Below, piece by piece: positions 30,451-63,004 of a stretch of DNA of 64,000 nt. The stretch lies in contig OZ242013.1 of NCBI GenBank assembly GCA_965204805.1, forward strand, positions 4,589,232-4,653,231. The letters run 5' to 3'. The DNA comes from Dehalococcoidia bacterium (GTDB lineage Bacteria > Chloroflexota > Dehalococcoidia > Lucifugimonadales > UBA3495). The position numbers were made by a program, and so were the translations under genes. The notes beneath the pieces are model-generated. The model did no database searches. It was not told the origin of the DNA and was given only the letters and a program-made list of their open reading frames with translations. The first letter of the stretch is position 1. Each line of letters begins with the position of its first letter.

Positions 30451-31389
30451 TCACCACGCGTTCAGCCTTGACAGCTGATCAATGTCGTCCACTATGGTGG
30501 GATCGGTCAAAACGGAGGTCATGACGCCACGCTCCCTTATCCCCTTCGCTACATCCAACGCGCGCTCAATAGTTTCTACGATCGTTCTGGCCTTAAACAC
30601 TATGCCCAAGTCCACCATTTGGTTCACCCAGGCATAGGAAGACGAACTCGCGTCGAGCAGTATTTGGCCGGCCTGTGACACTTCCATTTCCGACGTATAG
30701 ACTGACGCGAGTATTCCCAAGAAGGTGGCGTCGTATCTCGTAGTGTATTCGCGACTCCGATTGGCCCGCATAGTGTTATGCAGGATTACTACAGGACTCC
30801 CGCTGCTGCCGGGGAATACCGAACCATCAATCAGGAAGACGGGGAGCCCTCGGTAGTCTACATTTGGATGCGTCGCAGTGATGCCCTTTCTGATTATGGG
30901 AAGGTTATTGGCGGTGTCGTGAAATTGGTGGGGATACCCGACAAACACAATATCCTCTACAGCGTTCAAACTTTCGGGATCCTCAAGAGGCATTATCGAA
31001 GAGGAAAAGGCTTTGATAAAGGGATGATAACCAGGAACACTAAAGAGATCCTTGAATACTGGGATGACCGCCACATCAACATCGTCTTGGGGATGCCCGT
31101 ACCACCGGCTCTTGAGTTCTACACGAGCAAAATCTCCTACGATGGGTTCATCCGGGCCGACTACTCCGGGGGACTCCACAAAACTTGCCTTGGAACGCGT
31201 GAAGGTTATCTCGCATTGCCTCGAACCCTCTATCACGTGTTTGTTCGTAACCAGAAACAGTGTGGGCCCCTCTTCATGCCCCTCCGCTTCGTGAGTAACA
31301 AAGAATCCCGTCCCAGAACGCGCTGTGTCGGTGGTGATCATCGTGGTCGTAAACAGCAACCTTTCTTCCAGTGTATCTACCTTCATCAT
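30451..31389 (-). CDS. Cytoplasmic trypsin-like (S1/S1C-type) serine protease domain protein
   Basis: 312 aa with no signal peptide. Triad context: TNKHVIEG (His), DDVDVAVIPV (Asp), GSSGSPVV (Ser). G+C is visibly lower than the flanks. Convergent with the kinase gene. Confidence 0.75.
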   Translation of the reverse strand: MMKVDTLEERLLFTTTMITTDTARSGTGFFVTHEAEGHEEGPTLFLVTNKHVIEGSRQCEITFTRSKASFVESPGVVGPDEPIVGDFARVELKSRWYGHPQDDVDVAVIPVFKDLFSVPGYHPFIKAFSSSIMPLEDPESLNAVEDIVFVGYPHQFHDTANNLPIIRKGITATHPNVDYRGLPVFLIDGSVFPGSSGSPVVILHNTMRANRSREYTTRYDATFLGILASVYTSEMEVSQAGQILLDASSSSYAWVNQMVDLGIVFKARTIVETIERALDVAKGIRERGVMTSVLTDPTIVDDIDQLSRLNAW

Positions 31390-31550
31390 CTACTCCTCGG
31401 TTGCGGGTGTAAAAAGCAAGTATCGGCAATTGGGAGACTAAACAGCTAGGGAGGGTCAAGACTCATGCTGGAGGCCAAAAGCTGACCCCAGCAGCATTGC
31501 GAGTCTCGCTTTGAGGTGGAACCCATTATTTGGACCTCTCCCCGTTGGCG

Positions 31551-34466
31551 TTAGATTACTGGCTCGGCAACCTTTGGGCGCGCCTTCTCACCCTGTACCG
31601 AAGGCTCGGCGCACCATTTGGCAGACAACCTCCGAACTCCCTCGTACACATCATCGTCGAAGCCCAAGAGTTCACAGAGCACTCGCCGGTCCAGAAGAGC
31701 CCGGCTTGGGTCAACGTCCGCGACGAAGGCCGGCTTCAACTCCATGTCCCTGAGTTCGTTGAAAATGGCCTCGGAGGTGCGCAATTGCTCCTCCCTTAGT
31801 GCATCGAGGTCCAGGACGGGCAGAAATTCAACGTTTCGGATAGTGGTGGTGCCTCGGCCACTGTGCTGCCGGTTCGACTGCCACCAATACAGCAGCAGGC
31901 CGAGCGTAGAGTTGGACCACAGTGTGAACGCGAAATCGCACCGGTGGTCTGGAAACCTAATGTTGGGCCACGCCCTGCCGCCCATGCTCTCCCGCTCGGT
32001 GAACGCCACGGTCAACGGCTGAGAGTTGAACCTGAAGTCGAGGTTGATGTGAGTTCGGCTGGCCGTAGCCCAAGCAGAGGCGGCTTTCCCCTCCATCCCC
32101 GGCCTAACTCGGAGTTGGGAGTCCGGCTGGCAAGCCATCCGGGTTTCGTTCTTCGCATCGTGGTTCCACAGCGACGGATAGGTGGCTGTCGGGCTTGGAT
32201 CGATCTTGTCGAAAGCGCCGCGAGGCTGAGGGCCCGTAATATCACGATGGACCATGCCGAGTTTGGCCAGCTCGTTCAAAGGAGCCACTTTCAGATCCAA
32301 CGCCGAGGGGCGTCCTGGAAGCCACAGCCTGGATTGGGCCAATGCGAAAGCAGTCTGAGCCAGCGACAGGTCGGACAGGCGGACCGCGCACCATGATTCC
32401 CCGTCTGTCTGCACCGGGGCAGTCATGCTCTCTCCAGCGAGTTCGTCGCCGATCATCAAGGCTGTGCCCCCATAAGGCCCATCCTCGATGCATCTCGCAT
32501 GTTCGGGACCGGAGACATTCATCGCCAGTGCACCGGCGTGGGCAAAGCTACCGGCGCGGCGGCCCAGGGATACGAAGTGCCCCCGCCCTGGGGTTGCCTC
32601 AGCCTGCCTGACCTTGCGGGCTATGACCAGGCACTCGGCCATGCCCGTATCGGCTGAGAACGAAAGCTGGTCGTTGTCCGAACCCGCGATGCTCAGCACG
32701 GTGAGGTCGGTATAGTTCTCCGCCAGCGTCTCCCGGAAACCCTGCCAGGACAGGCCCGCGGCTGCCGACAGGGGCAAGACCAGAGCAAGGACTCCACCAG
32801 GCTTGAGCTTCCTGTGGGCCAGCGCAGCGAATGCCGAGGCGATTCGGGCATTGCCGTGATAGCAGGAGTCCTTCCCCAACTGGTTGATCCGGTCTCCCAT
32901 TTCCGTTTGGTCTGCGGGCGTGGCGTCAAAGGCGGCGAAGGCGGGGTTGGTGATATCCGCATGGGCGCCCTCATGGTTGGTTGCCCTGGTGAAGGGCGGG
33001 TTCATTATTATCAGGTCAAAGTTCGCATCCGGGATGTCCACGTGAATCTGGGCGGCAGTCTCCTCGCCCACGCTGCCGGTGCGCCGGGCCGGATCGCTGG
33101 TGTTGAACAGGGTCAAGGCTGTGGAGGCTTGCAGCAACTCCAGGGAACCTATCTTTACCGTGCCGTCCTTCTGCTTTCCATAGGGCATGGTGTAGAGGCG
33201 GGACTGGTTGAATCCCACGTTGGGTCGCATACCTGACAGTGTGGAGCCGGTAATGTGGATCGCCGATGGCATGACGTCGCAGCCGTACAGGACCTCCTCC
33301 ATCATCACCGGATGCAGGGCTGTGGAATCGCCACCGGCGCGCTCGTGGCGGGAAGCAACCTGCTCGTACACCGCCGACAGCAGGGTGCCTGTGCCGCAGG
33401 CGAAATCCCCTATGCGCAACCTGCCTATGGCCTGGGAATCCGCCCAGTCCAGGCCCTCCATCTTTGCAACGGCGAGCCGGGCCAACAACGCCGCCGAGGA
33501 TGGCAGCGTGTAGAAGGTCGCCAGATACTTGCGGTCGGCGATAAGCCGTTGAAAGATGCGGCCCGTCAGGTCGTGGGCGTTGTCGACTCCGGTGGCCTCC
33601 ACTTCCTGGGCGGTATCCAACAAATCCCGCAACATGCTGGTGGCAGCGTCTCCGGGAAGCTGCTCCAGGATGTCCTTGGCGATGGCAAAGATTGGCCAGT
33701 AGTTGATCTTCAGGATACCTTCCCAGGCTGCCAAGGTCTCGCCCTGGGGATTTGCCACGTTGGGACCGCACACCAAGCGCAGGGGTTTCACCTCCTGGTG
33801 CATCCCCGCGATACGCTGGTGGAAGATCATGGCGTTGGCGATGATGGCGCAGGCCATGCGGCGTGTCTGGGGAACATCGCTCATTCCCAGCAACCGGGCG
33901 ATGACAGGGGTGACGCTGGGGCGCAGCCTGGCCATCTCATCCAGTTGGTTGGCAGCCTGACCGATGCCCTGCTCAAGCGTGTCAGCCGCCTGCTCCACTG
34001 CCCTTTGTGGGACGGACACCAGGCGCGCCAAATCGGCCAGATCGCTCACCGAACCGTCCAGCCACCCCAATTCGGGAAACCGGCTGCCGTCTTGATGAAG
34101 GACGCAGTAGGTCAGGCGTGTATCGGCCAGAGTCAAGCGCAGTTCATAGGCATCCTCCACACTCCTGGGATAACGCAGGGCAATGGCAGCCTCGACGGTG
34201 CGCGGGGCATCTCTTACGCGCAGCCCTAGACGCTCAGAGGCATCCTCCTCCACTTTGACGGCCGGCTCATACTCAGCCTCGACAACCACCGGGGAGCGGC
34301 CCGGCGCGGCGATCAGCACGTCGGCATGGCGGCCCGGATGGTCGATGAAGGTCTGGGTGTTCTCGGAGCGGACCTCACAGCCCGGCATCATGCCCCGCAG
34401 GATGTCGCCCAGGACGTTGTTGGTGTTCGGTTCTGTCTGTCGCGGCATTCTACCTACCCAGTCCAC
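31551..34466 (-). CDS. Large (971 aa) N6-adenine DNA methyltransferase, type IIG / BREX-PglX-like size class
   Basis: SAM motif I DFACGTGTLL. Motif IV IIMNPPFTRA (NPPF, gamma-class N6-MTase). A long C-terminal region is compatible with a target-recognition domain. The N-terminal ~110 aa contain HADVLIAAPGRSPVVVEAEYEP, a possible degenerate PD-(D/E)xK-like element (uncertain). Confidence 0.75.
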   Translation of the reverse strand: MDWVGRMPRQTEPNTNNVLGDILRGMMPGCEVRSENTQTFIDHPGRHADVLIAAPGRSPVVVEAEYEPAVKVEEDASERLGLRVRDAPRTVEAAIALRYPRSVEDAYELRLTLADTRLTYCVLHQDGSRFPELGWLDGSVSDLADLARLVSVPQRAVEQAADTLEQGIGQAANQLDEMARLRPSVTPVIARLLGMSDVPQTRRMACAIIANAMIFHQRIAGMHQEVKPLRLVCGPNVANPQGETLAAWEGILKINYWPIFAIAKDILEQLPGDAATSMLRDLLDTAQEVEATGVDNAHDLTGRIFQRLIADRKYLATFYTLPSSAALLARLAVAKMEGLDWADSQAIGRLRIGDFACGTGTLLSAVYEQVASRHERAGGDSTALHPVMMEEVLYGCDVMPSAIHITGSTLSGMRPNVGFNQSRLYTMPYGKQKDGTVKIGSLELLQASTALTLFNTSDPARRTGSVGEETAAQIHVDIPDANFDLIIMNPPFTRATNHEGAHADITNPAFAAFDATPADQTEMGDRINQLGKDSCYHGNARIASAFAALAHRKLKPGGVLALVLPLSAAAGLSWQGFRETLAENYTDLTVLSIAGSDNDQLSFSADTGMAECLVIARKVRQAEATPGRGHFVSLGRRAGSFAHAGALAMNVSGPEHARCIEDGPYGGTALMIGDELAGESMTAPVQTDGESWCAVRLSDLSLAQTAFALAQSRLWLPGRPSALDLKVAPLNELAKLGMVHRDITGPQPRGAFDKIDPSPTATYPSLWNHDAKNETRMACQPDSQLRVRPGMEGKAASAWATASRTHINLDFRFNSQPLTVAFTERESMGGRAWPNIRFPDHRCDFAFTLWSNSTLGLLLYWWQSNRQHSGRGTTTIRNVEFLPVLDLDALREEQLRTSEAIFNELRDMELKPAFVADVDPSRALLDRRVLCELLGFDDDVYEGVRRLSAKWCAEPSVQGEKARPKVAEPVI

Positions 34467-34548
34467 CCGCTCCTACCGGATGGATGGCTCACAACCCCAC
34501 TCGACCGGCAAGGTCTTCGATACGACTGCGGAGGGTGTTGCCCCGCTC

Positions 34549-36285
34549 CTAAATGAACTCCTCGAAGTCGCTTGGTGTAAACGGGTTCTTCATCAGGATG
34601 TCAAAGGCGCGGGTGGAGATGAAGTGCGAGTCCAGTATCCTCATCACCTCATCCTTTCCACTGGTGGCGATGAGTTCCGGCAGGTACTCGTTGGGAAGAC
34701 GGTCCCTGATGACCTCGCGGTTGGTTTCACTGGTCAGGGGTGTCCGGTTTAGTATGGTGTCGATAGAGGTGTTCAGCGCATATTCGCTTCCGAGGCTCTT
34801 CGGGACGATGTGATGGTCATCAAGGTCGTCGTGCTGGGGAGCGTTTCCAGATATCCAGTCGCGAGCGCCATTGAGGACCAACAGGTTGAATATCCCGTTG
34901 TAAACGGACGTGCCTCGCCTCGCCTCACGCCTGAGATCGAGATTCCCAATGTCTCTATTAAACTCCGCAATCAACCCGGGTTGGGCGTTGTCATCGGTGT
35001 ACCAAGTCTTGATTTCCCTGTAGTCCTGCGCCGCTGTGGATTCAACTGCTCCCGAATAGCGGTTGGTGAAGATGCTGGCCCAATACCAGAGACGCACCTT
35101 CTTCTGAGCATCGAGCCTCTGTTCGGGGGGAAGCCGACCCGCTTCGACCTGAAGGGCAGCGAAGGCTGGCAGAATCGCCGCGTAGGGCAGGTATTGAGAA
35201 GATATTGCGCCAAATTCCTGTGGGTGGCGCAGTAAATTCAGCGCCTTTTCCAGAGCATCCACCGCTTCAAACCAGAGATTCTTGAATTCGTCAGAGTCGT
35301 CAACAACCACGTCCGGCTGAAGCGTGCCGTCCGGCCCGCGTACCTGCCTTCGGCTACCGGGAATCAGGTTGTATAAATACTTCGGGGAACAGTACGCCTG
35401 GCGAAGTATGGACATCACCTGAAGCACATACACGTTCATCCGCCCTGCCTCGGCAAACTCCAGGCGAGGAGACGCTTCTCTCCACAGATCCTGCCTGAGT
35501 CGAATTTCCTTTGGCCTCAAGAGGGCGTTGAGGAGGTCGAAGATATCGAGCCTGACGCCCCGGCTGTTGATCTGCGTGAAGATATCGCAGACCTTGTCGA
35601 GTTCGAGGTCTCGGTCCAATTCGACATAGGAAATCTGGTACTGCTCAGTGATATCCTTCAGGTACTCGCCAAACCTCTTGGCGTTCTCCGCATGGAATGC
35701 GGCAGATTCAGCCTCTGTTCCTTCGAGTGTCTCCGCCGCTTCATGCCAGTGCTTCTCATAACCCTGTACCCAGTTTGGCAGTTCCCAGCCCCCTGCTCCG
35801 ACTACAGAAAGCGGGAAGATGTGCTCCTTGAACTGGCAGGTCCGATCACTCAGCAGATTCAGCCCCCGGCGAGTCCAGTCATATATGAAGGCGTCATCGT
35901 ATGCCTCGTCCATGAAGCGGTCGACCTTGATGAAGTAAAGGAATCGATTGCGGCGGCTGGGCGCGGGCTTGTCGGGTGCCATGAAAGCGTAATACATGGC
36001 CGTGAGACGCTGCTGGCCGTCCAATACGATGTCGGTTCGGCCATCGGCACCCTCAAAGCCGTAGATGGCCTCACAGGAGAGTGACTCAAAGTTCTCGTCC
36101 TTGCCCTTCCAAAGAAGAAGGCTACCGATGTAGTAGTCGCGGAATATGGAACTCATCAACTCTTTGATGTCCCACGGCTGCCACTCAAAGTCACGCTGGA
36201 AATCGGGTATCACGTAGCGGCCCTCACGCAAGCGGCTAACCATGTTGGCGAGGCTCACGTGGTCCGGCTTCTGGGAGTCCTTCAT
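34549..36285 (-). CDS. GmrSD-family type IV restriction enzyme-like protein (DUF262 + DUF1524/His-Me finger)
   Basis: N-terminal IPDFQRDFEWQ and LDGQQRLT are DUF262/ParB-like NTPase signatures. C-terminal LDDHHIVPKS....N.....LNRTPLT..TN is a DUF1524 HNH-like nuclease signature. The start overlaps the vapC stop by 4 nt. Confidence 0.8.
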   Translation of the reverse strand: MKDSQKPDHVSLANMVSRLREGRYVIPDFQRDFEWQPWDIKELMSSIFRDYYIGSLLLWKGKDENFESLSCEAIYGFEGADGRTDIVLDGQQRLTAMYYAFMAPDKPAPSRRNRFLYFIKVDRFMDEAYDDAFIYDWTRRGLNLLSDRTCQFKEHIFPLSVVGAGGWELPNWVQGYEKHWHEAAETLEGTEAESAAFHAENAKRFGEYLKDITEQYQISYVELDRDLELDKVCDIFTQINSRGVRLDIFDLLNALLRPKEIRLRQDLWREASPRLEFAEAGRMNVYVLQVMSILRQAYCSPKYLYNLIPGSRRQVRGPDGTLQPDVVVDDSDEFKNLWFEAVDALEKALNLLRHPQEFGAISSQYLPYAAILPAFAALQVEAGRLPPEQRLDAQKKVRLWYWASIFTNRYSGAVESTAAQDYREIKTWYTDDNAQPGLIAEFNRDIGNLDLRREARRGTSVYNGIFNLLVLNGARDWISGNAPQHDDLDDHHIVPKSLGSEYALNTSIDTILNRTPLTSETNREVIRDRLPNEYLPELIATSGKDEVMRILDSHFISTRAFDILMKNPFTPSDFEEFI

Positions 36286-36698
36286 TGGGTCGCACCTCCT
36301 GGGTTTCCCACCAAGATTGCTCCTTCCATGCGGGCTAACCTGCGGTCAAAAGTATGAAGAGGCGTAGCTCCCGCCCGTTCGGTCGCCTTGAGGATCATCA
36401 GGTCTGAGAATCCAACGCCCCCCTGGCGAAAGCGATGTGCGGCGGCAGCAACGTCATCGGAATTCTCCACGACCAGACTGTCCGTAGCGGTCAGGTCCAT
36501 CAATGCCTCAGCAATCTGGCTGCGGGTGAAGCGGTAGCTCCGCTCCAGTACCCAGGCAACCTCAATCACAACCTCACGGCAGATGAATCCGGGGGCGCTT
36601 GGCGTCAACTCCTCCAGCAGCGCACGAGCGGCCTCCGCCTGTTCGGGGTCGTCTCCCACGAGGTAGCGCACGATCACGTTGGTATCGAGCGCAGTCAT
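36282..36698 (-). CDS. vapC: PIN-domain toxin VapC
   Basis: 138 aa. MTALDTNVIVRYLVGDD (first acidic PIN residue), later acidic residues and the ...DLMIL... motif. 4-nt overlap with the upstream antitoxin ORF. Confidence 0.8.
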   Translation of the reverse strand: MTALDTNVIVRYLVGDDPEQAEAARALLEELTPSAPGFICREVVIEVAWVLERSYRFTRSQIAEALMDLTATDSLVVENSDDVAAAAHRFRQGGVGFSDLMILKATERAGATPLHTFDRRLARMEGAILVGNPGGATQ

Positions 36699-49438: not shown

Positions 49439-50779
49439 ATGGCGACGCGATACGAGACCGGCCGGATTGACGCCCAATGGCAGGTGAAATCTCCGGGCTG
49501 GCGGCCGAAAGAGCATAGCAGCGAGCGCGAGATGCTCTACGACATTCTGGAGGGCCAGGAGGATATTGAGTGCCTGCTGGCCTGCCGCTGGGGCGACACC
49601 CGCTCATGGCAATGGGTGGGGAATATGGTCGTTGGAGGGCTCCAAAATGCAGGAAACTATTACCCGGGGCCTCACCATGATGGCATCGCCGTGGCAACCA
49701 GCCTACGAGTCATCTTCTTGATGAAACGAAGAGGCTTCCTGGGCCTTTGGGGCGAAGCCGATGCCGCAAGCGCCGAGGTGGCATACGAGGACATAGCGTT
49801 GGTGCCCTATCCTGACATGGACCCTTACGAGAGGCGCTGTAAAGACAGGAACATGAAGGATCTGGTGAGGATAGGAGACTACAAATACTCCGCGAACAAG
49901 CGGGTCGACGACCAGCCGTTCATTGATTGTGTGCGGAGTCATTTGACCTCTCCCGAGGCGTTGAAGGCCAATCGGCTTGATGCCCAGTGGCGAGCGTGCG
50001 CGCCGGACCTGTTTGACCCGGCTGACTCCACCCGTGTGCGCCGGAACCTATACTCGGTACTGTACGGCAACGAGAACATCGAAAGACTGGTACGGGGTGC
50101 TCTGTGGGAATGGTCGACGCCCAGCGAGGGCGTTGCGGCGGCCACTGCGAGCCGGATAATTCTAATGCGCTCCTCGGAACAACAATACTCGATACCCTGG
50201 TCCGAAATACCATACCGCAGTATCGAGGAAGTGACGTGCAGTGGGGCGGAGGTGTCCATCGCCAGGCGCAGCGCCGGTGTCAGCAAAATCACTGACCGCC
50301 GGCGAGTCTATGCTGAGCCGTTCGCGGACTGGGTGCAGGCCCGTCTGGCCGGGTCGGCGGCGTCTGGCGATGCGGTGAGGCTGAACCGGATTGACGCCCA
50401 GTGGCATGCGCTGGTTTCAGATAACCGGGTCTGGTGCCCCGAGGCGCACACCGGGGAACTCCTGGCGTTGTACTTCATCCTTGACGATGGCGAAGATATT
50501 GAGAACGTAATCGAGGCGTTTCTGGAGGACGTGATCTATTGCGTCGCCGTGGCGACCGACCGCCGGGTCATTGTGCTTAAAGGACATAACAAGGTGTTGG
50601 AGTCGCCCTATGAAAGCATCGGAGAGGTCGAATACGACGCCGGGTTGTTTGGGGGCCGCCCGGGCATGACCATCACCGGGGTCTTCACCACCGATTCCAA
50701 GACAATCTTCGGGTACGACAGCCGAGACCTCAGGGCGTTTGCCGATCGCGTCCATTGTCATCTGTTCTGGACAGCCTGA
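49439..50779 (+). CDS. Hypothetical protein built from three ~150-aa internal repeats
   Basis: Each repeat starts with R(I/L)DAQW(Q/R/H) followed by ....(L/M)Y..L.G.E(D/N)IE.(L/V), at about aa 7, 175 and 315. Possibly a PH-like fold (speculative). Confidence 0.6.
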   Translation: MATRYETGRIDAQWQVKSPGWRPKEHSSEREMLYDILEGQEDIECLLACRWGDTRSWQWVGNMVVGGLQNAGNYYPGPHHDGIAVATSLRVIFLMKRRGFLGLWGEADAASAEVAYEDIALVPYPDMDPYERRCKDRNMKDLVRIGDYKYSANKRVDDQPFIDCVRSHLTSPEALKANRLDAQWRACAPDLFDPADSTRVRRNLYSVLYGNENIERLVRGALWEWSTPSEGVAAATASRIILMRSSEQQYSIPWSEIPYRSIEEVTCSGAEVSIARRSAGVSKITDRRRVYAEPFADWVQARLAGSAASGDAVRLNRIDAQWHALVSDNRVWCPEAHTGELLALYFILDDGEDIENVIEAFLEDVIYCVAVATDRRVIVLKGHNKVLESPYESIGEVEYDAGLFGGRPGMTITGVFTTDSKTIFGYDSRDLRAFADRVHCHLFWTA

Positions 50780-50867: not shown

Positions 50868-51833
50868 GTGGTTTTTCCACCGCATTTTTGGCGACTCATC
50901 ATGGGCACACTTCCCTCGTTCATAGAGGCTCTCTGGGCCCTGAAATATGTGGTGTCCGGCAAGGTGAAGCCGCTGCGGGAGGATAAGGGAACTGCGATGG
51001 AAGAGGCCAGAGCTGTACGAGACGGGCAGAGAGCCTGGGCCACGGAGAACGGAGTCCCCTTCGATTCTCGCGGCTACGTTGATGACGTTGAAATGAATCT
51101 CAGGCGACCCCTGTCCGCAGCGGCTCGGGAGGCTTTTGAGAAAGGGGCGGGGTCAGAGCTTGCCGGGCACATGAGGGCGCTGCACTCGTCTTCTGCCCTG
51201 GTGGTCAACTTCTTCGACTACTGGAGCTGTAGGGACAAGGATCCACTCCTATTCGCCTTCGGCATCAGCGGCAAAGTGGCAGACCGTCTGGAATTCGAGG
51301 CCCGTTTCCCCACAGGGCTGGGAGGGACTCCGCCACATCTTGACGTTGTGATATGGCTCCTGTCAGGCGAGGCCATCGCAGTGGAGAGCAAATTCACCGA
51401 ACACCTGGGGCGGTCCACTAAGGGAAAATCCCGCTTTGAACCCTCGTACTTCCCCGAACAAAGGGGACTCTGGGAGGAGAAAGGCCTGCCCGCAAGCCAG
51501 TTATTCGCCGAAGAACTGAACGCCGGACTCCATCGCTTTGAATCCCTGGACCCGTGGCAACTCCTAAAACACGCCCTGAGCCTGGCCAATGTCCTCGGTC
51601 AGGCTTTTCGCTTAGTTTACCTTTACTACGACTCACCCGGGGGAAGGGCCCAGCAGCACCGGCGGGAAGTCCGGAGATTCGGCGACGCCGAGCGAGACGA
51701 TTTCATATTTGAACCGCGGGCGTACCAGACGGTTTACCAGCACCTCACGACTTTTGAGGACACGGACCTTGGCTACCTCGAATACATCGACTACTTCGGG
51801 ACCAGGTACTTCCCCGACGTCCTCAGACGATGA
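50868..51833 (+). CDS. PD-(D/E)xK nuclease-fold protein (putative)
   Basis: ALHSSSALVVNFF followed by PPHLDVVIWLLSGEAIAVESKFTEHL gives a D...(E)xK arrangement typical of restriction-endonuclease-like folds. The start is uncertain (possibly MGTLPSF at ~50901). Confidence 0.55.
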   Translation: MVFPPHFWRLIMGTLPSFIEALWALKYVVSGKVKPLREDKGTAMEEARAVRDGQRAWATENGVPFDSRGYVDDVEMNLRRPLSAAAREAFEKGAGSELAGHMRALHSSSALVVNFFDYWSCRDKDPLLFAFGISGKVADRLEFEARFPTGLGGTPPHLDVVIWLLSGEAIAVESKFTEHLGRSTKGKSRFEPSYFPEQRGLWEEKGLPASQLFAEELNAGLHRFESLDPWQLLKHALSLANVLGQAFRLVYLYYDSPGGRAQQHRREVRRFGDAERDDFIFEPRAYQTVYQHLTTFEDTDLGYLEYIDYFGTRYFPDVLRR

Positions 51834-52031
51834 TGTTTCCGTGCCCGCCCTTTGGGGATCCTCCAGGGGTCGCGCGGGGTGTTCGGATGGAGCCGGAAAG
51901 CGCCGTAAATGGATGCAAATGCACCCCTTACCGGTTGTCACCGGCTCTTGATGATTTCCATTCCGAGCGGCTACGACTTTGACAGGCCCCAGTAAACTAC
52001 TGTCTGGCAGTCTCGGAAAAGGAGACCCAGT

Positions 52032-53255
52032 ATGCCTCCGGCCGTTATAGCATGGCTCGACTATTCTCAGGCTGATCAGCGCCGGGCGCGGGAAATCGTT
52101 GCGATGTTCTCCCAGGCCGAAAGCCGGGACGAGCTCGGGATTGGTCAGATCCGGGATGCCCTGAGCGACACGCTGTTCCCTGGAACCTCGGTACTGTTAA
52201 CCCGTGCGCGGTACCTGCTGTTCGTTCCATGGCTTTACCGGGAGGGAGCCCGCCTGGGACGCCACGGCCCGCAGCTCGCATCATGGGTCGACTGGCACGA
52301 GCGGCGCCTGATCGACGCTCTTAGCAACGGCGGCGACCGGGAGGGATTGATTGGCCGAGTTGCGGGAGCGGCGATTCAGAACCTGCCCTCTACAATTTAT
52401 TGGAACAGCCTGCGCCGTTTCGCCATTCTGAGGGACGATGCAAGCCCAACGCAGATAGTGAGTCATCGACCGCTGGCACGCCGGTCCAATGACGCAACCG
52501 AGTTTGTAGAACACTCGGATTCAGTCTGGGATCCCTCGATGCCAAACCCTCCGGAGGACTTCTTCGCGCTCAGCAGTTGCGATTTCACCCTCACCGGAGA
52601 CGAGGCCACCTGGCTTGCCGAACGCATCTGCCAGGCCGCCCCCGACACCCTGCTCCAATTCCTGGTGGCCAAGGGCACCCGGCGCCACGAGGTCGCCCGG
52701 TTCGCTTGGGATGATCCCGAGGTCAAAGCGGCCCCCGAACAAATACGCGACGGCGTCGCCCAGGCGGAGCGCTTCGCAGTGGTGATGCACGGGGCAGCGC
52801 TGCTCTACAACATTCTCCTTGCCGAGCGTGAGGAAGAACTCGGTCTATCCCAGTATGACGGACAACGAGAACATTTCGCTGGCCGGCTTGAACAGTGGCA
52901 GAATGAAATTGGGAGAGGCGACCTGAATGGATGGGACCTTGACCGGCTGTGGGCCCTGGTCTCGATGCAGGGAAGGCCCGTCTCGCCAATCACACGCGCA
53001 TTCGTCACTCAGTGGGCCAGGCTGATACGGGAGAGACACAGCCGTGCATTCACTGACGACTCGGATGCGCGGACGCTGATTCGGGAACGGGAACTCCGCC
53101 AGAAAGGAGGGCAGGCGCGACTCCGCAACGACAGGCTCATGCGACAGTGGGGAGGGGCATCGGGGTCCGGTCGCCTCAACTTCCGGTGGCCAGTGGTTGC
53201 CCGTCTCCTGAATGACATCGCCGAGGGCAGGGAGGATGGAAATGCTGCCTCCTGA
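52032..53255 (+). CDS. Hypothetical protein (407 aa), first gene of a PLD-helicase cluster
   Basis: RBS GGAGAcccagtATG. N-terminal DELGIGQIRDALSDTLFPGTSVLLTRARYLLFVPWLY block. The 3' end overlaps the next gene. Confidence 0.6.
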   Translation: MPPAVIAWLDYSQADQRRAREIVAMFSQAESRDELGIGQIRDALSDTLFPGTSVLLTRARYLLFVPWLYREGARLGRHGPQLASWVDWHERRLIDALSNGGDREGLIGRVAGAAIQNLPSTIYWNSLRRFAILRDDASPTQIVSHRPLARRSNDATEFVEHSDSVWDPSMPNPPEDFFALSSCDFTLTGDEATWLAERICQAAPDTLLQFLVAKGTRRHEVARFAWDDPEVKAAPEQIRDGVAQAERFAVVMHGAALLYNILLAEREEELGLSQYDGQREHFAGRLEQWQNEIGRGDLNGWDLDRLWALVSMQGRPVSPITRAFVTQWARLIRERHSRAFTDDSDARTLIRERELRQKGGQARLRNDRLMRQWGGASGSGRLNFRWPVVARLLNDIAEGREDGNAAS

Positions 53256-55056
53256 CAACCGCGCGCTGCTGCTTGACGCACTTCAGCCGCCCCTGGGCCA
53301 CTCCCTGGACCGCGCAGTCGCAACGACGTTCACATTGGATCTCGAGACGGCCCTGATGGTGCCCCTGGCATTCGCGGGATTTCGAATCGACGAGAATCCG
53401 GACCCGATCGAGATCATGGAGGCACTCCGAAGAATGAGCGAGAAGTTGGACATTTTCTGCCAGGCCGGCGCCATCAGCGCGGCCAGGTGGCCGTCCGACC
53501 TGGTGGCTCTTCTCGAGAACGTCATACACGAGGTCAGGCGACCCCGGCCGGGCCGCATCTTTCATCCGAAGGTCTGGGCGCTCCGGTTTCTGGATCCATC
53601 AGGGAAACCCGCATACCGGCTTGTCGTGCTCACCCGGAACCTCACCGCCGACCGCAGTTGGGATACGATCCTCTGGCTTGACGGTCATCCGGAGGGGCGG
53701 CGTCCAATTGCCAGCAATCGCCCGCTGGCCAGCTTCTTCGAGGCACTGCCAGGACTTGTGTCCGCCGGCCTCGCCGGGGAGAGGAGTGCCGCCGTATCAG
53801 AACTGGCCCAGGAACTAAGGCAGGTAAGCTGGGAACTGCCGGACGGGGTGCGCGAGGCCCGCTTCCACCCGATCGGGATTCGCGGATTTCGTTCCTTTCC
53901 GGTGGAGGACCATTTCACCGGCTACCGAAGGCTCGTCATCTCTCCCTTTGTCCGGGATGGGTTTATACAGCGGATACTCGACGCCGCACCTAGCCGGGCA
54001 GCGACGCTGGTTTCACGGGGCGAGGAGTTGACGGCACTTCGAACGGACACCCTTGACCGTCTGAGCGCCTACGAACTGGATTCCGCGGCCCAACTCTCGG
54101 TGGCTGACCTTGACCGTGACACAGACCGTACCTTCCTCAACAATAACAATCTGCACGCAAAGGTTTACGTGGCTGAGCGGGCCCGACTGGCGCATCTATA
54201 CATTGGCTCACCGAACGCGACCGAGGGAGGGTTCAACGGCAACGTGGAGTTTCTGTGCCAGCTCGTCGGCCCCGTGGCAAAGTACGGGGTTGATGCGCTC
54301 GTGGGTGAGAATGCACCGATGCGTGCTCTGCTGACTCCGCACGTTCCTTCCGAGACGCCGGAGACCGATGAGAGCGATAAGGTTGGGAGGGCGCTTCAGG
54401 ATTTGCTCATGGACATCGCCGCCGATGTTGGGTTCCGTACCATTGTCACTAAAGCGCCTGATGGCTGGGCACCCTGCATAACGGCGGATTCGGAGTTGCC
54501 GCACATGCCCGACGGCACGACCGTAACCATCGCCGCCCATAACCGTCCGGCCGAGACTTACACGCTGCGTCCCGGCGAACCTGTCGCGGTGGAACTGCCC
54601 ACACGCGAAATTGCGGATATCACCCCGTTTCTTCAACTCACCGCCGGACGGGCGGATGGGGGCATGGTCATCGAACGATCGACGGTGATCTGCTCCCGGC
54701 TGGAAGGGGAGCAGGCAGATCGCTATAGCGAGATCTTTGCCAGGCAGATCGATACCCCGGAGAAGTTCCTCCGGCTCCTGACCCTTCTCATGGGATTCGG
54801 CTCCGGAGGCGTCATTGGCGTCCGTTCCGGAACAGGCGGTTGGGCGGAAGGCTGGTCGGCGGGCGCCGGCGCCGGTGTCCTGGAGTTGCTGGCGCGGGCC
54901 CTCTCCGAGAACCCTGACTCGATCGACCACCTGGCCACCATCATTGACCATGTGCGAGCGTCGGCAAGAGGGACGGCGATACTCCCTCCCGGCTGGGATG
55001 ATGTGTGGATACCCGCACTTGAGGCCAGGCGCGCCATGCAGGGAGCTGATACATGA
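53236..55056 (+). CDS. Phospholipase-D-family (two HxK motifs) nuclease-like protein
   Basis: Two HKD-type motifs: IFHPKVWALRF...LVVLTRNLT and LHAKVYVAE....LYIGSPNATEGGF. The ORF track starts at 53212; ATG 53236 or 53242 behind GGGAGG is preferred. The stop overlaps the helicase start (ATGA at 55053-55056). Confidence 0.75.
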   Translation: MEMLPPDNRALLLDALQPPLGHSLDRAVATTFTLDLETALMVPLAFAGFRIDENPDPIEIMEALRRMSEKLDIFCQAGAISAARWPSDLVALLENVIHEVRRPRPGRIFHPKVWALRFLDPSGKPAYRLVVLTRNLTADRSWDTILWLDGHPEGRRPIASNRPLASFFEALPGLVSAGLAGERSAAVSELAQELRQVSWELPDGVREARFHPIGIRGFRSFPVEDHFTGYRRLVISPFVRDGFIQRILDAAPSRAATLVSRGEELTALRTDTLDRLSAYELDSAAQLSVADLDRDTDRTFLNNNNLHAKVYVAERARLAHLYIGSPNATEGGFNGNVEFLCQLVGPVAKYGVDALVGENAPMRALLTPHVPSETPETDESDKVGRALQDLLMDIAADVGFRTIVTKAPDGWAPCITADSELPHMPDGTTVTIAAHNRPAETYTLRPGEPVAVELPTREIADITPFLQLTAGRADGGMVIERSTVICSRLEGEQADRYSEIFARQIDTPEKFLRLLTLLMGFGSGGVIGVRSGTGGWAEGWSAGAGAGVLELLARALSENPDSIDHLATIIDHVRASARGTAILPPGWDDVWIPALEARRAMQGADT

Positions 55057-57212
55057 ACCGGAGCAGCGAGCACAGACGCCCAACGTCGCTTAGTGATTTT
55101 CAACGGGCAACGGCGCACCACGCCTTCAGGCGCCTGTATCGCGACTCCGATTCAACGAAACGGTTTCTCGTTGCTGATGAGACCGGCCTGGGCAAAACGC
55201 ACGTCGCCAGGGAGGTCATTTCCCTGGCCGTCAAGCACCTTCAACAGGTCGACCACGTGGGCCGCATCGACATCGTATACGTTTGCTCCAACGCGGACAT
55301 CGCCGCTCAGAACATACGCAAGCTGGATATCGCCGGATCCGACAGGCCGAGCTTCGCAACCCGGCTGAGCCTGCTCATCACCAAGCCCGAGATGTTGAGG
55401 CCCACGGCGCCCGAAGGAGGCAAGCCGACGACCTTTGTGGCATTCACGCCGGCCACCTCTTTCCAGCTGGGACAGCAGATGGGAAGGAAGGAGGAGCGCG
55501 CCGTCCTCTATGTGCTGCTTCGCGACCACCTGGGGCTCTATGGAGCGCGGACCACGGCGGCGCTGCGAATCTTTCAGGGAGGGGTGGGCAACTGGCAGAA
55601 ATTCCGGGACCGTGACGTCGCGAATCTTGATGTAGGGTCCTTTGATCAAGGCATCCGTCAGGCATTCTACGAGGAGTTCGACCAGAGCTCCGAGAGCAAC
55701 TCCCTCGTCTCCCTGGTCGATGAGGTCACCGGGCGCAGGTCATTGACCGATCACCAGCGGGACACCGCGCGCACCATCATGGGTGAACTTCGCAGAATGC
55801 TGTCGCGAGCAGCGTTGAAGGCGCTCGAACCGGACCTCGTGATTCTTGACGAATTTCAGCGCTTCCGGAACCTGCTGGACGTCAAGACAGGAGGCGACGC
55901 GGCCGAACTGGCAGACGACCTCTTCAGCCATGCGGACTCCCACGTGCTGTTGCTCTCGGCCACTCCTTACAAGCCGTTTACCTACGCGGAGGAGGCGGAC
56001 GCCAGCGGTGGACACTATGGGGACTTCCTGAAGACCCTGGAATTCCTCGCCGCCTCCGAGACCGCCGTGGACGCTGTGCGGGCCGATCTTAATGAACTGC
56101 GGCAGGCGGCCCTGTCGGGCGTGCCGACGGCTGATGTCCGGGACCGGGTGCAGTCCCAATTGAGGAGATGGATGGCCCGGACCGAGCGCCCGTCCGGCAC
56201 CAACCGCACAGCGACTACCCGCGGGGACACGAACCAACTCCGGGTCAGGGCCGAGGACTTCAGCGGCTTCGTCGCCCTGCGGAATGTCGCCCATGCCGTG
56301 GATGCTCCGTTCACCGTTGAGTATTGGAAGTCGTCCCCCTACTTCCTCAATTTCCTCAGGGGGTACCGGGTCGGTGAAAATTTGCGGGACGGCATGAAGG
56401 ACCTCGATCGCAGGACCCGGTTGGTACCGCTGTTCGAGGGAGCCCAGCGGATCTCCAGGACCGATGTGGAGCAGTTCAATAAACTCGAATGGGGAAACGC
56501 CCGCATGCGCGCCTTGGCTGCCGAGACCCTCGATCAGGAGTGGTGGAAACTACTGTGGATGCCCCCGTCCCTCCCTTACCATGCCCTCGCCGGTCCGTAT
56601 GAAACGGTCGATCCAACCTCAATCACCAAGAGCCTCATCTTCTCCAGTTGGGTGGCCGCCCCTTCGGCCATCGCCTCACTACTCAGCTACGAGGTGGAGA
56701 GACGGATCTTCACGCAGGGAGGACACTCCGTTAATACGCCCGCAGACCGGGCGTCCATTGCCAGCCGCCTCGACTATCGAATGACCAACGGCCGCCCGTC
56801 CTCCATGACGGCACTAGCGCTTTTCTGGCCACAGCCGACGCTGGCCTCGCAAACCGATCCATTGGATGCCGCCCGTGAACACTGGAACGATCCGGAGCCT
56901 CCCGGCATCGGTCGCGTCGTCGAGTGGGCGCAGGGCCGGGTGGAGAACCTCGTCGGCCCGAACGGAAACACCCGGGCGACAACCAGCGCACAATGGTACT
57001 GGTTTGCGCCGGTGCGCTGCGAGAACGACAGCACCCTCGGATCGGAACTGATAAACGCACGGCGCAGCAGTCTCGTTGATGCGTTGGTCGGCACTTCGGA
57101 GGGCCGCGGTACTGAGGACACCTCGGGCGCCCTCCGGGAACACGTAAACATGATGGTGGGTGCCCTGGGCAACCGGGAGCCGGATACGGAGCGTCCGGCG
57201 GACCTGCAGTAG
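55053..57212 (+). CDS. SF2 helicase, N-terminal part (motifs I-III); ends at an in-frame TAG
   Basis: Motif I LVADETGLGKTHVA, motif II LVILDEFQRFRN, motif III LLLSATPYK. TAG at 57210-57212. The same frame stays open immediately afterwards and carries the C-terminal helicase lobe. Confidence 0.8.
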   Translation: MNRSSEHRRPTSLSDFQRATAHHAFRRLYRDSDSTKRFLVADETGLGKTHVAREVISLAVKHLQQVDHVGRIDIVYVCSNADIAAQNIRKLDIAGSDRPSFATRLSLLITKPEMLRPTAPEGGKPTTFVAFTPATSFQLGQQMGRKEERAVLYVLLRDHLGLYGARTTAALRIFQGGVGNWQKFRDRDVANLDVGSFDQGIRQAFYEEFDQSSESNSLVSLVDEVTGRRSLTDHQRDTARTIMGELRRMLSRAALKALEPDLVILDEFQRFRNLLDVKTGGDAAELADDLFSHADSHVLLLSATPYKPFTYAEEADASGGHYGDFLKTLEFLAASETAVDAVRADLNELRQAALSGVPTADVRDRVQSQLRRWMARTERPSGTNRTATTRGDTNQLRVRAEDFSGFVALRNVAHAVDAPFTVEYWKSSPYFLNFLRGYRVGENLRDGMKDLDRRTRLVPLFEGAQRISRTDVEQFNKLEWGNARMRALAAETLDQEWWKLLWMPPSLPYHALAGPYETVDPTSITKSLIFSSWVAAPSAIASLLSYEVERRIFTQGGHSVNTPADRASIASRLDYRMTNGRPSSMTALALFWPQPTLASQTDPLDAAREHWNDPEPPGIGRVVEWAQGRVENLVGPNGNTRATTSAQWYWFAPVRCENDSTLGSELINARRSSLVDALVGTSEGRGTEDTSGALREHVNMMVGALGNREPDTERPADLQ

Positions 57213-57263
57213 ACAGCCGCGCTGCTGGGCCTAGGAGCTCCCGGCAACATCGCGTGGAGAGCG

Positions 57264-58280
57264 TTGAGCCGCCTCAGGAAGCCGGAAGGCCAGGTGACGG
57301 AATTTGGCCTGTGGCGGGCCGCATCCATGCTGGCATCCGGTCTCCGCAGCCTGTTTGTCCGGCCCGATGCGGAACTGCTGCTGGACACAATCTACGGTGG
57401 GTCGCGCGTTGCCCGAGAGGGCGCCGGTGCGTACTGGCGTAAGGTGGCCCGGTATTGCATCGACGGGGACCTGCAGGCGGTTCTTGACGAGTATGTCCAC
57501 CATCTGGCCGGAGAGTCCGGGGCCAACATCGAGACTGATGAGGGTCTTTTCTCTTTTGCAGAGTCCGCACGGGGGGCAATAGCCCTAAGGCCGTCGGTGT
57601 ATCGTGCCACCGACATTGATCACTTCGACGCCCAGGGAATATCTTTCCCCAGCCGGTACGCCCTGCGGTTTGGCAGCGCGCAGCGCAGCCACGAGGAGGC
57701 CAGGCTTCCCGAGGTGAGGGCAGCCTTCAACTCGCCCTTCTGGCCGTTCGTCCTTGCAACAACATCAATTGGGCAGGAGGGAATTGATTTCCATTGGTGG
57801 TGCCACTCCGTCGTGCATTGGAACCTTCCCGGCAATCCAGTCGACTTCGAGCAGCGTGAGGGCAGGGTGGACCGCTACAAGGGACACGCAATCAGGAAGA
57901 ACGTCGCGGCCGCTCACCGGTCGGCGGCATTGGCTCCTGGAGTGGTGGATCCCTGGACTGCTGCATTTGAGGCCGCGGCGAAAGAGACTGACAGGGACAC
58001 CGGCGGTCTCTCGCCCTACTGGATTTATTCGGGGGATGCCCGGATCCATCGGAGACTGTTGTCTCTCCCATTGAGCCGCGATGAGGACCGGTGGGCCCAG
58101 TTGCAGGATTCGCTGGCGCTCTACCGGCTGGCGTTCGGCCAGCCGAGGCAGGAGGACATGCTGGCCGCGCTGCAACGTCGCGGCATCATTAGCCGCCCCG
58201 AGGAAATTGATGACCTGCGAATCGATTTGCGGCCGCCGGTGTCTGTCATCGGCCAAGCAAATCCGGAACCGGCGAGGTAG
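57264..58280 (+). CDS. SF2 helicase, C-terminal part (motifs V-VI), same frame as 55053-57212
   Basis: VLATTSIGQEGIDFH (motif V) and FEQREGRVDRYKG (motif VI, QxxGRxxR). No stop occurs between 57213 and 57263, so 55053-58280 is one 1075-codon helicase gene interrupted by a single amber codon. The alternative is a split helicase starting at TTG 57264. Confidence 0.75.
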   Translation: MSRLRKPEGQVTEFGLWRAASMLASGLRSLFVRPDAELLLDTIYGGSRVAREGAGAYWRKVARYCIDGDLQAVLDEYVHHLAGESGANIETDEGLFSFAESARGAIALRPSVYRATDIDHFDAQGISFPSRYALRFGSAQRSHEEARLPEVRAAFNSPFWPFVLATTSIGQEGIDFHWWCHSVVHWNLPGNPVDFEQREGRVDRYKGHAIRKNVAAAHRSAALAPGVVDPWTAAFEAAAKETDRDTGGLSPYWIYSGDARIHRRLLSLPLSRDEDRWAQLQDSLALYRLAFGQPRQEDMLAALQRRGIISRPEEIDDLRIDLRPPVSVIGQANPEPAR

Positions 58281-61192: not shown

Positions 61193-63004
61193 CTACCCCT
61201 CCTCTCCCTTCCAGAGGCGTGCCTCGTCGCGCACAAATTGGGCCGGGTCTTCCAAAGCCTTGATCAGGTAGGGTTCAGGCAGTTCGCAGCCAAGTTTGCG
61301 CAGCGCCCGGAGAGCCGCCCATCTGACCAATGCCTCTTCGTCCGACAGCGCCTCCAGAAGACCAACCCTAGCTTCCTTGTCTCCCAGGGCCCCCAGACCC
61401 TCGGCGGCGGGCAAGCGCACCATCAACCCATCGTCCCTCAACGCCAGGAGCAGTGCCGGCACGGCCTCCCGGCAGGCACCCTCGCCTTCATTGGCGGCGA
61501 GTTCCCCCAGCCCTTTGGCAGCGGCAACTCGCACATTCTGTTCCCCATCCCCAAGTGCCTCCAGGAGTGCCGGCATGGCCTCCCGGCGGGCATCCTCGCC
61601 TCCATTGGCGGCGAGTTCCCCCAGTCCCTTGGCAACGGCAGCTCTCACAATCTGGTCCTCGTCCCCAAGTGCCTCCAGCAATGCCGGCAGTTCCTCCGGG
61701 CCACCCAGGATCCCCAACACCTCGGCGGCCTTGGCCCTTCTCCAGATCTCCGGAGCGCGCAGATCCTGCAGTTCCTCCGGAACACCGTGCCTACTGCCCA
61801 GCTGCCTCAGGGCCTGGGCCACGCTGCTGGCACTTGAGCCCGAACCTCTCAGCTTGGCGAGCAGGTGCGGTATGGCCTGGGTAGCCCCCATCTTTCCCAG
61901 TGCCCCGGCGGCACGGGACTGCACGGACATGTCGGGGTCGTTCAGTGCGCGGATCAGCCCGGGCACAGCCTCTGGTCTTCCCAGGTCCCCAAGGAGTCCG
62001 GCCGCCGCGTAGCGTGCTCTCTCGCCACCCGAACCCAGGACGTCGAGCAGTCCGGGAACAGCCCCGGGGTCCTTGAGTTTCATCAGGGACTGCCCAGCCA
62101 CCGAGGCAAGCATCCCGTCATAGTGGGGCAGGGCTGACACCAGCCCATGCACGGCCTCCTCGCCTCCCAGTTCGCCCAGGGATCTGGCTGCCTCGCAGAG
62201 CACCGTCTGATCGTAATGCTTGAGAGTCCTGAGCAGGGCAGGCACGGCGCGCCGGTCCTTCAGCTGGCCCACCGAACGGGCTGCCTTTACATTCACCGCC
62301 GGATTCCACCGATCCAACGCCCTGATCAGTGCCGGCACGGAGTCTTCGTCGCCCAGCGTCCCCAGGGCCTCGGCCGCCACCTCCAGCAGGGGAGTGTCCC
62401 CGGCCAGAAGGGCTTCGTTGAAGGCCGGTACCGCCTCCCTGACCCTCATATCCAAGAGTGCCTGTCCAGATCGCGCCCGGACAGTTTCGTCAGGGTCGGA
62501 CATGGCTCTCAGCAGTTGAGATACCGCGCCGCTCTCCCTGAGTTTCCCCAGGGCCCAGACAGCCTCCTGCCGCACAAGGGCGCTTTCGTCGTCAACCAGC
62601 GGAACAAGCGCGGGACCGGCGTTGGAGTCCCCGTTCTGACCGAGGTCCCAGGCGGCACCGGCCCCCGCGCCCTCATGACCGTCAGCCAGAAGCAAAGTCA
62701 GCTCCGGAGTTGCTGTCGTTACGCTCATCTTCCCGAGGGAACGGGCGGCGCCGGCCCGGGTGTCCCCATCGGAGTCCGCCAGAGTGGCGACCAGTCCCGG
62801 CACAGCGGCGGCATCCCCCAGGTTACCCAGGGTCTCCGCGGCCGCTCGCCGGGCTGGCGGGAAGCCTGAGTTCAGCGCATTCATCAGGAACGCAGGCACT
62901 TCTTGTTCACTGGCGATGCCCAGTATCTGCGCGGCGTACCGGCGCACCGCCTCATTTTCGTCAGAAATGGCTGGGATGAATTGTTCTTCGCCTGATTCAG
63001 ACAT
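61193..63004 (-). CDS. HEAT-repeat (PBS-lyase-type) protein, 603 aa
   Basis: About 17 consecutive repeats of the form D....VR..AA.ALG.LGD..AVP.L...L. Two adjacent 38-aa units are nearly identical. Confidence 0.85.
   Translation of the reverse strand: MSESGEEQFIPAISDENEAVRRYAAQILGIASEQEVPAFLMNALNSGFPPARRAAAETLGNLGDAAAVPGLVATLADSDGDTRAGAARSLGKMSVTTATPELTLLLADGHEGAGAGAAWDLGQNGDSNAGPALVPLVDDESALVRQEAVWALGKLRESGAVSQLLRAMSDPDETVRARSGQALLDMRVREAVPAFNEALLAGDTPLLEVAAEALGTLGDEDSVPALIRALDRWNPAVNVKAARSVGQLKDRRAVPALLRTLKHYDQTVLCEAARSLGELGGEEAVHGLVSALPHYDGMLASVAGQSLMKLKDPGAVPGLLDVLGSGGERARYAAAGLLGDLGRPEAVPGLIRALNDPDMSVQSRAAGALGKMGATQAIPHLLAKLRGSGSSASSVAQALRQLGSRHGVPEELQDLRAPEIWRRAKAAEVLGILGGPEELPALLEALGDEDQIVRAAVAKGLGELAANGGEDARREAMPALLEALGDGEQNVRVAAAKGLGELAANEGEGACREAVPALLLALRDDGLMVRLPAAEGLGALGDKEARVGLLEALSDEEALVRWAALRALRKLGCELPEPYLIKALEDPAQFVRDEARLWKGEEG
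61450..61680 (-). repeat. 114-bp near-identical tandem repeat (two HEAT units) inside the HEAT-repeat gene
   Basis: gtgccggc..cctcccggc.gg..cctcgcc..cattggcggcgagttcccccag occurs at 61453 and again at 61567. Protein units: PALLEALGDEDQIVRAAVAKGLGELAANGGEDARREAM / PALLEALGDGEQNVRVAAAKGLGELAANEGEGACREAV. Confidence 0.8.

Follow-up and report, generated by a model that had tools for sequence, protein, structure and literature searches.

An Azaca operon with a nonsense codon in zacC, next to a separate REase-ARP nuclease gene, in a defense island of a Dehalococcoidia chromosome

A stretch of 64,000 nucleotides from the genome of a Dehalococcoidia bacterium of the phylum Chloroflexota (contig OZ242013.1, positions 4,589,232 to 4,653,231; hereinafter the window, within which all positions are counted) contains four co-oriented genes between positions 50868 and 58280. 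These code, in order, for a PD-(D/E)xK nuclease-like protein, a 407-amino-acid (aa) protein, a phospholipase D (PLD)-family nuclease with two HKD motifs, and a large superfamily 2 (SF2) helicase. A first-pass annotation of the window had read them as a four-gene anti-phage defense system that was built on the PLD nuclease and the SF2 helicase, was distinct from DISARM, and matched no named system. The locus thus raises the question of whether it represents a novel conflict system or a version of one already described. We find that it is an already described system and that, as a system, it offers nothing new. We consider it very likely that the last three genes (52032–58280) constitute a copy of Azaca (zacA-zacB-zacC), which carries a nonsense codon in zacC and is probably inactive, and that the first gene, which codes for a member of the Pfam family REase-ARP, is a separate neighbor rather than a component.

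To identify the proteins, we scanned those encoded in the window with the PADLOC-DB, Pfam, and NCBIfam models. The 407-aa protein was recovered by the PADLOC ZacA model (e-value 2.1e-127, model positions 4–394 of 396) and by the Pfam family DUF6361 (5e-65; 220 bits against a cut-off of 25), and the PLD-family protein by the ZacB model (3.6e-157, model positions 1–582 of 586). The helicase gene is broken by an in-frame TAG, and both parts of its product matched the ZacC model, namely the part before the stop (55053–57209; 1.5e-186, model positions 6–685 of 1019) and the part after it (57213–58277; 1.5e-126, model positions 690–1016 of 1019), with Pfam Helicase_C additionally found in the C-terminal part. 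None of the NCBIfam models represents ZacA, ZacB, or the REase-ARP protein. The PADLOC matches overturn the earlier view that the locus corresponds to no named system; assignment to a described system is the very outcome that the first-pass annotation had named as refuting its claim. They also place the 407-aa protein, which does contain the motif DELGIGQIRDA..LFPGTS..RARYLLFVPW and which had been singled out as an 'N-terminal-block protein' that set the locus apart, as ZacA, a standard DUF6361 subunit of Azaca. Searches of the PDB sequences with a ZacA profile, ZacB, and ZacC repaired with Glu at the stop returned only chance matches to uL15 (E about 0.02).

The remaining sequence features agree with this identification. 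The two HxK...(S/T)xN motifs seen earlier in the 614-aa open reading frame (ORF) of the nuclease are both present, as FHPKVW...TRN and LHAKV...GSPN, and so are the SF2 helicase motifs recognized in the 1075-codon frame, of which motifs I (GLGKT), II (DEFQ), and III (SAT) lie upstream of the TAG, and motifs V and VI (QREGR) lie downstream of it. The window therefore presents what defines the Azaca family at the sequence level: ZacA, ZacB, and ZacC, each with full-length matches to the corresponding model, encoded by adjacent and co-oriented genes in the order zacA-zacB-zacC. The arrangement is also that of Azaca in detail, with a DUF6361 protein, a double-HKD PLD nuclease, and a roughly 1075-aa SF2 helicase encoded in succession, stop/start overlaps between the genes, and all catalytic motifs retained. 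What is lacking is a set of three intact reading frames, since the window version of zacC has a nonsense codon at residue 720; this concerns the activity of the operon and not its membership in the family. A further difference lies in the host, which belongs to the Chloroflexota/Dehalococcoidia and not to the Bacillota or Gammaproteobacteria that we infer as hosts of the tested Azaca systems from their names (Bm and Kp).

Azaca has been credited to Millman et al., 2022, with a PLD-like domain listed among its features (PMC10952713), and has been reported as enriched in Actinobacteria (PMC10482375). The homologs BmAzaca and KpAzaca have been tested experimentally, with protection against phage T4 exceeding 10^6-fold (bioRxiv 10.1101/2025.07.10.664194). 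In the same study, T4 DNA was cleaved by the full BmAzaca ZacABC complex only, and cleavage required the PLD nuclease active site, the Walker A motif of ZacC, and all three proteins; the purified complex preferred T4 DNA, which contains glucosyl-hydroxymethylcytosine (glucosyl-hmC), with a highly degenerate cut-site preference, and substitutions at conserved positions of ZacA were without effect. Mokosh (with a PLD domain), Hachiman HamAB, and AbpAB likewise combine a helicase/NTPase with a nuclease effector in one complex but belong to different protein families; among the systems examined with mutants, Azaca alone needed its third subunit, and the helicase Walker A motif was needed for DNA cleavage by Azaca only and not in PaAbpB, BtHamB, or EcMkoC (bioRxiv 10.1101/2025.07.10.664194). 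By extension from the tested homologs, the ZacA, ZacB, and ZacC proteins of this locus would form a single complex. Within it, the SF2 ATPase/helicase ZacC would, as a helicase or translocase powered by ATP, license the PLD nuclease or deliver it, the double-HKD nuclease ZacB would cut foreign, possibly modified, DNA, and the DUF6361 protein ZacA would be a required third subunit with a structural or regulatory role.

The four co-oriented ORFs reported in the first-pass annotation are reproduced by our ORF list and translations. The maximal ORFs on the plus strand are 50868–51833 (321 aa), 52032–53255 (407 aa), 53212–55056 (614 aa), and 55053–57212, with the frame of the last continuing to 58280 for a total of 1075 codons with a single internal TAG; the coordinates that we favor after examination of the start codons are given in Table 1. 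A GGAG lies 7 nucleotides (nt) 5′ of the ATG of zacA, and the TGA of this gene, at 53253–53255, falls within zacB. The start of zacB is most likely ATG 53242, because it is preceded by a GGAGG 6 nt upstream, the ZacB model begins there (its first position aligns with residue 11 of the longer ORF), and the publicly deposited gene call likewise has 604 aa. Therefore, the overlap of zacA and zacB that had been noted is genuine but spans 14 nt and not 44. The ATGA that had been reported as shared by the nuclease and helicase genes, at 55053–55056, is real and constitutes the zacB/zacC junction, with an AGGGAG 7 nt upstream of it (55040–55045).

To place this operon among its relatives, we scanned species-representative genomes with ZacA, which yielded 80 loci, and then located the other window proteins in these by tblastn. 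In a protein collection, ZacA had 1254 relatives at E<=1e-10. The closest ZacA loci come from metagenome-assembled genomes (MAGs) of Dehalococcoidia, SAR202, and Chloroflexota (58–86% identity), and the more distant ones, at 40–49% identity, are mostly from Actinomycetota, together with a betaproteobacterial MAG and Planococcus. The order zacA-zacB-zacC, with the same small overlaps, is kept in about 70 of these 80, including loci as distant as 40% identity. As for the catalytic residues, the H, K, N, and G-S residues of both ZacB motifs are 100% conserved in an alignment of 67 sequences, as are motifs I, II, III, V, and VI of ZacC in one of 62 sequences. Where there was enough sequence to assess, zacABC was intact in 58 of 72 loci and disrupted in the other 14 (within L002–L081) by frameshifts, stops, or deletions in the zac genes; in three loci (L044, L077, and L080), Azaca has shrunk to a ZacA fragment. 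These disruptions reflect either frequent decay of Azaca or errors in long-read MAG assemblies.

The amber codon that the first-pass annotation had spotted in the helicase gene is present at 57210–57212 (ctg cag TAG aca). We compared it with the 13 closest loci whose N-terminal ZacC match reaches the position of the stop: the aligned codon is GAG in eight and GAA in five of them, ZacC is uninterrupted there, and the position sits inside the conserved stretch ERPADLQ-E-T.ALLGLGAP. A single G>T change would thus have turned a glutamate codon of zacC into a TAG, leaving a 719-aa fragment and, most likely, a non-functional operon. This 719-aa product, also deposited with the public 4.68-Mb source contig, lacks all residues from 720 on and with them the second RecA lobe, which contains motifs V and VI. 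Because the published cleavage activity needs the Walker A motif of ZacC and all three subunits, we judge the fragment very unlikely to work. Downstream of the TAG, the sequence retains the signature of purifying selection relative to its homologs in L002 and L039; against L002, it shows 91% amino-acid versus 86% nucleotide identity, with 104 of 149 differences at third codon positions. As third-position differences still dominate there, the mutation is either recent or artefactual. The operon as sequenced is accordingly read as probably non-functional, barring an assembly error at the TAG.

The gene upstream of zacA codes for a protein that matches REase-ARP (Pfam PF22558) with an e-value of 4e-15 and 56.5 bits, above the gathering cut-off of 27, and its H114-x-D116 and E130-x-K132 are invariant across 18 homologs. 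The PD-(D/E)xK fold that had been proposed for it is thus borne out by both the family match and the D...ExK triad. The ORF itself is likewise as reported, but its proposed GTG start at 50868 does not stand. The start is most likely ATG 50997, because the homologs are 270–280 aa long and the tblastn matches begin at that residue; the GTG, in turn, lies inside a hairpin and T-run at 50868–50883. This element, consisting of the hairpin GTGGTTTTTCCACCGC followed by ATTTTTGG on the plus strand, is located 89 nt past the stop of a bPH-domain gene (49439–50779) and could be its terminator. Between the REase-ARP gene and zacA there is a gap of 198 nt without any coupling, and this spacer (51834–52031) presumably holds the zacABC promoter; a sigma-70 scan gave no promoter-like match in it, and in a promoter/terminator scan the matches were no more frequent than in shuffled sequence. 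The window protein and its relatives differ from what the family name implies, in that the gene is a solitary one found in defense or mobile-element settings, with no ARP/macro-domain partner among the relatives examined: no macro-domain (ARP) gene is listed beside it in the window, in L001, or in L082–L087. A literature search for 'REase-ARP' found no papers.

More distant REase-ARP homologs, at about 60–65% identity, occur without Azaca nearby (L084, L085, and L087). In two of these loci (L084, 2218–12518; L087, 1–9150), the gene stands in a series comprising a Replic_Relax-like gene, small ORFs, REase-ARP, a small ribbon-helix-helix or HI1420-type gene, and a large serine recombinase gene, and L084 additionally has a TrwB-like protein of 875 aa encoded upstream. 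This suggests that REase-ARP is carried as cargo of integrative elements in Chloroflexota. A tblastn search for the TrwB-like/Replic_Relax/serine recombinase backbone in the window itself gave no matches. The third locus, L085, has two REase-ARP paralogs on opposite strands 2 kb apart (8001–8834 and 10871–11698), with a sigma-70-family gene between them; the pair adjoins a type I restriction-modification (RM) system with an embedded CD-NTase/Cap15 pair of the cyclic-oligonucleotide-based antiphage signaling system (CBASS) type.

Could ZacABC and the REase-ARP nuclease, the latter serving as an additional effector or a sensor, nonetheless work jointly in a new four-gene system, such as the first-pass annotation had proposed? 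The gene is co-oriented with and directly 5′ of zacA in the window and in L001, L002, and L082, and is found with an insertion sequence (IS) element in between in L083; the pairing thus persists where the REase-ARP protein is 83–89% identical to that of the window (L082 and L083). It probably reaches down to 76–80% identity, as the contigs of two such REase-ARP homologs (P0128 and P0130) equal in length those of two ZacA matches (P0004 and P0012). Against this, by tblastn the gene lies upstream of zacA in only two of the 80 genome loci, both close relatives (L001 and L002, with ZacA 90% and 86% identical), and neither in L039, where ZacA is 83% identical, nor in any other genome locus. Hence, the synteny proposed as a check on the claim exists for the three zac genes but not for the four-gene order. 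Similarly, when the one or two ORFs 5′ of zacA were scanned with Pfam across more than 70 loci, REase-ARP appeared in three of 135 ORFs, the window counted, with the other upstream neighbors being a typical defense-island mix of UvrD-like helicases, Mrr, NERD, and AAA ATPases. In L082, the Azaca beside REase-ARP is reduced to a 100-aa ZacA remnant, and in L083 a transposase gene and a helix-turn-helix gene have come to lie between REase-ARP and a zacABC that remains intact, with a ZacC of 1075 aa. The uncoupled gap to zacA, the homologs of about 60% identity in integrative-element, CBASS, or type I RM settings devoid of Azaca, and the sufficiency of ZacABC by itself for defense and DNA cleavage in the tested systems (bioRxiv 10.1101/2025.07.10.664194) also speak against a joint system, which we regard as quite improbable. 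There is a similarly slim chance that one Dehalococcoidia sub-clade has recruited REase-ARP as an accessory of Azaca, be it a second effector or a back-up nuclease, to form a four-gene variant; if true, the persistence of REase-ARP beside zacA would reflect function and not just common island ancestry. The position of REase-ARP next to zacA is best explained by the shared ancestry of one island variant, with the nuclease gene being a separate and probably independently transcribed neighbor that would have been co-inherited with Azaca in one narrow clade. A different assignment of the core genes would see them as a DISARM-like or Dpd-like system with missing partners, in which the PLD protein is DrmC and the helicase is DrmA, DrmD, or DpdE. 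DISARM does share with this locus a PLD-family nuclease and a large SF2 helicase in a defense island, and there is local similarity at the level of motifs: a weak match of DrmC (6e-4) covers 39 residues around one HKD motif, and matches of DrmD, DrmA, and DpdE, down to 1e-11, extend over roughly 45–60 residues at helicase motifs V/VI (about 80 at most for DpdE). The Azaca models, however, match the same proteins along their entire length, with e-values lower by at least 100 orders of magnitude, and the NCBIfam models fall far below their cut-offs (DrmD, 46.8 bits versus 610; DpdE, 22.8 and 32.1 bits versus 500). Further, the locus has a DUF6361 protein in place of DUF1998 (DrmB) and an adjacent methyltransferase, neither of which was found among the scanned neighbors: the first-pass annotation had likewise noted no adjacent gene of either kind, and the ORFs scanned between 24 and 63 kb include none of these save for an Eco57I-like gene about 17 kb away. 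DISARM and Dpd membership was ruled out by the model scores together with the missing DUF1998 and methylase genes, leaving this assignment with virtually no chance of being correct, and the earlier contention that the locus is a PLD-helicase defense system distinct from DISARM is upheld.

With the locus thus read as an Azaca copy with a probably inactivating mutation, some observations still weigh against this reading. The TAG might be a sequence error of a metagenome-assembled genome; an AlphaFold2 model of ZacA, computed from a 17-sequence alignment, reached only a mean predicted local distance difference test score (pLDDT) of 53 and a predicted template modeling score (pTM) of 0.40; and the preference for glucosyl-hmC T4 DNA comes from a distant homolog and may not apply to this locus. 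The first of these amounts to an alternative in its own right, namely that the codon at 57210 is really GAG, its reading as TAG having arisen in base calling or assembly, and that the operon is functional. This would fit the perfectly conserved flanks of the stop (ERPADLQ-x-TAALLGLGAP) and the identity and strong third-position bias of the downstream part relative to L002; moreover, many of the related loci are long-read MAG assemblies, and some of their disruptions may be artefacts. Yet the TAG is a substitution without an indel, and errors in long-read assemblies are mostly indels; the public contig record holds the same truncated product; and there is true decay of Azaca in relatives, as the ZacA remnant of L082 exemplifies. 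We therefore take a sequence error to be a real possibility, albeit an unlikely one. Far harder to sustain is the idea that ZacC is synthesized in two pieces that come together again, the second by re-initiation at TTG 57264, or that the TAG is read through. A GGAG at 57256–57259 does lie 4 nt before this in-frame TTG, but the spacing is short and the bases merely encode a conserved W-R-A-L peptide. The position of the TAG is free of stops in all 62 alignable loci, of which L019 is the only one with an in-frame stop at any point in ZacC. The TAG is, besides, an ordinary terminator in the window, ending eight of its 32 genes, zacC among them, and the residue aligned to it is a plain Glu with no sign of recoding, all of which makes a split or recoded ZacC exceedingly improbable. 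An Azaca operon interrupted by a nonsense mutation hence remains the reading that we prefer.

This Azaca operon is inside a low-GC defense island of the Chloroflexota chromosome, because other defense genes share the same low-GC stretch: the GC content falls from about 66–69% to 55–63% between roughly 30 and 60 kb of the window. A second defense cluster (30451–36698, minus strand) is located about 15 kb upstream of Azaca and comprises a protease, a methylase/REase-type, a GmrSD-like, and a PIN-domain gene (Table 1). A search of the window for tRNA genes was negative, and Pfam detected neither integrase nor recombinase domains in the ORFs scanned. Beyond the island, the minus strand of 1876–26789 is occupied by six very large ORFs of 638 to 1741 aa, with a GC content at third codon positions of 0.79–0.90, which code for fibronectin type III (fn3) and He_PIG Ig-like repeats; these proteins are presumably secreted or located at the cell surface. 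A related fn3 gene, together with a neighboring gene for a GAF-PAS histidine kinase/response regulator, reappears beside the degraded Azaca of L082. On the other side, past the island and with the GC content rising, a 603-aa protein (61193–63004, minus strand) consists almost entirely of HEAT/PBS-lyase-type repeats (HEAT_2, 1.9e-100).

Table 1. Features of the Azaca locus, its upstream neighbor, and the second defense cluster of the island (positions within the window; + and −, strands)
Feature	Coordinates	Strand	Description
REase-ARP gene	50997..51833	+	Stand-alone PD-(D/E)xK nuclease, 278 aa from the most likely start, ATG 50997; very likely a neighbor and no Azaca component
Non-coding spacer	51834..52031	+	198 nt between the REase-ARP gene and zacA
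zacA	52032..53255	+	407-aa DUF6361 protein, third (non-enzymatic) Azaca subunit
zacB	53242..55056	+	604-aa PLD-family (double-HKD) nuclease; alternative ATG 53212 less likely
zacC	55053..58280	+	SF2 helicase/ATPase gene, 1075 codons with one in-frame TAG; probable pseudogene
Premature amber codon in zacC	57210..57212	+	From GAG (Glu) via one G>T
Trypsin-like protease gene	30451-31389	−	PADLOC candidate PDC-S45, 1.9e-69
Eco57I-like methylase/REase-type gene	31551-34466	−	971 aa; mad2-like, 1e-10
GmrSD_N gene	34549-36285	−	578 aa; PDC-M55C / HEC-05-like
PIN-domain gene	36282-36698	−	4-nt overlap of its end with the GmrSD-like gene

The value of these results is modest and in the first place one of annotation, in that the locus can be labeled as Azaca (zacABC) with a nonsense mutation in zacC, situated beside an unrelated REase-ARP gene in a defense island. 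It adds nothing special regarding the role of ZacA within Azaca. The REase-ARP nuclease, as a solitary cargo of defense islands and integrative elements, could merit study of its own. As for the family to which the operon belongs, the dozens of intact loci recovered here establish Azaca as abundant and well conserved across the MAGs of Chloroflexota and Dehalococcoidia.

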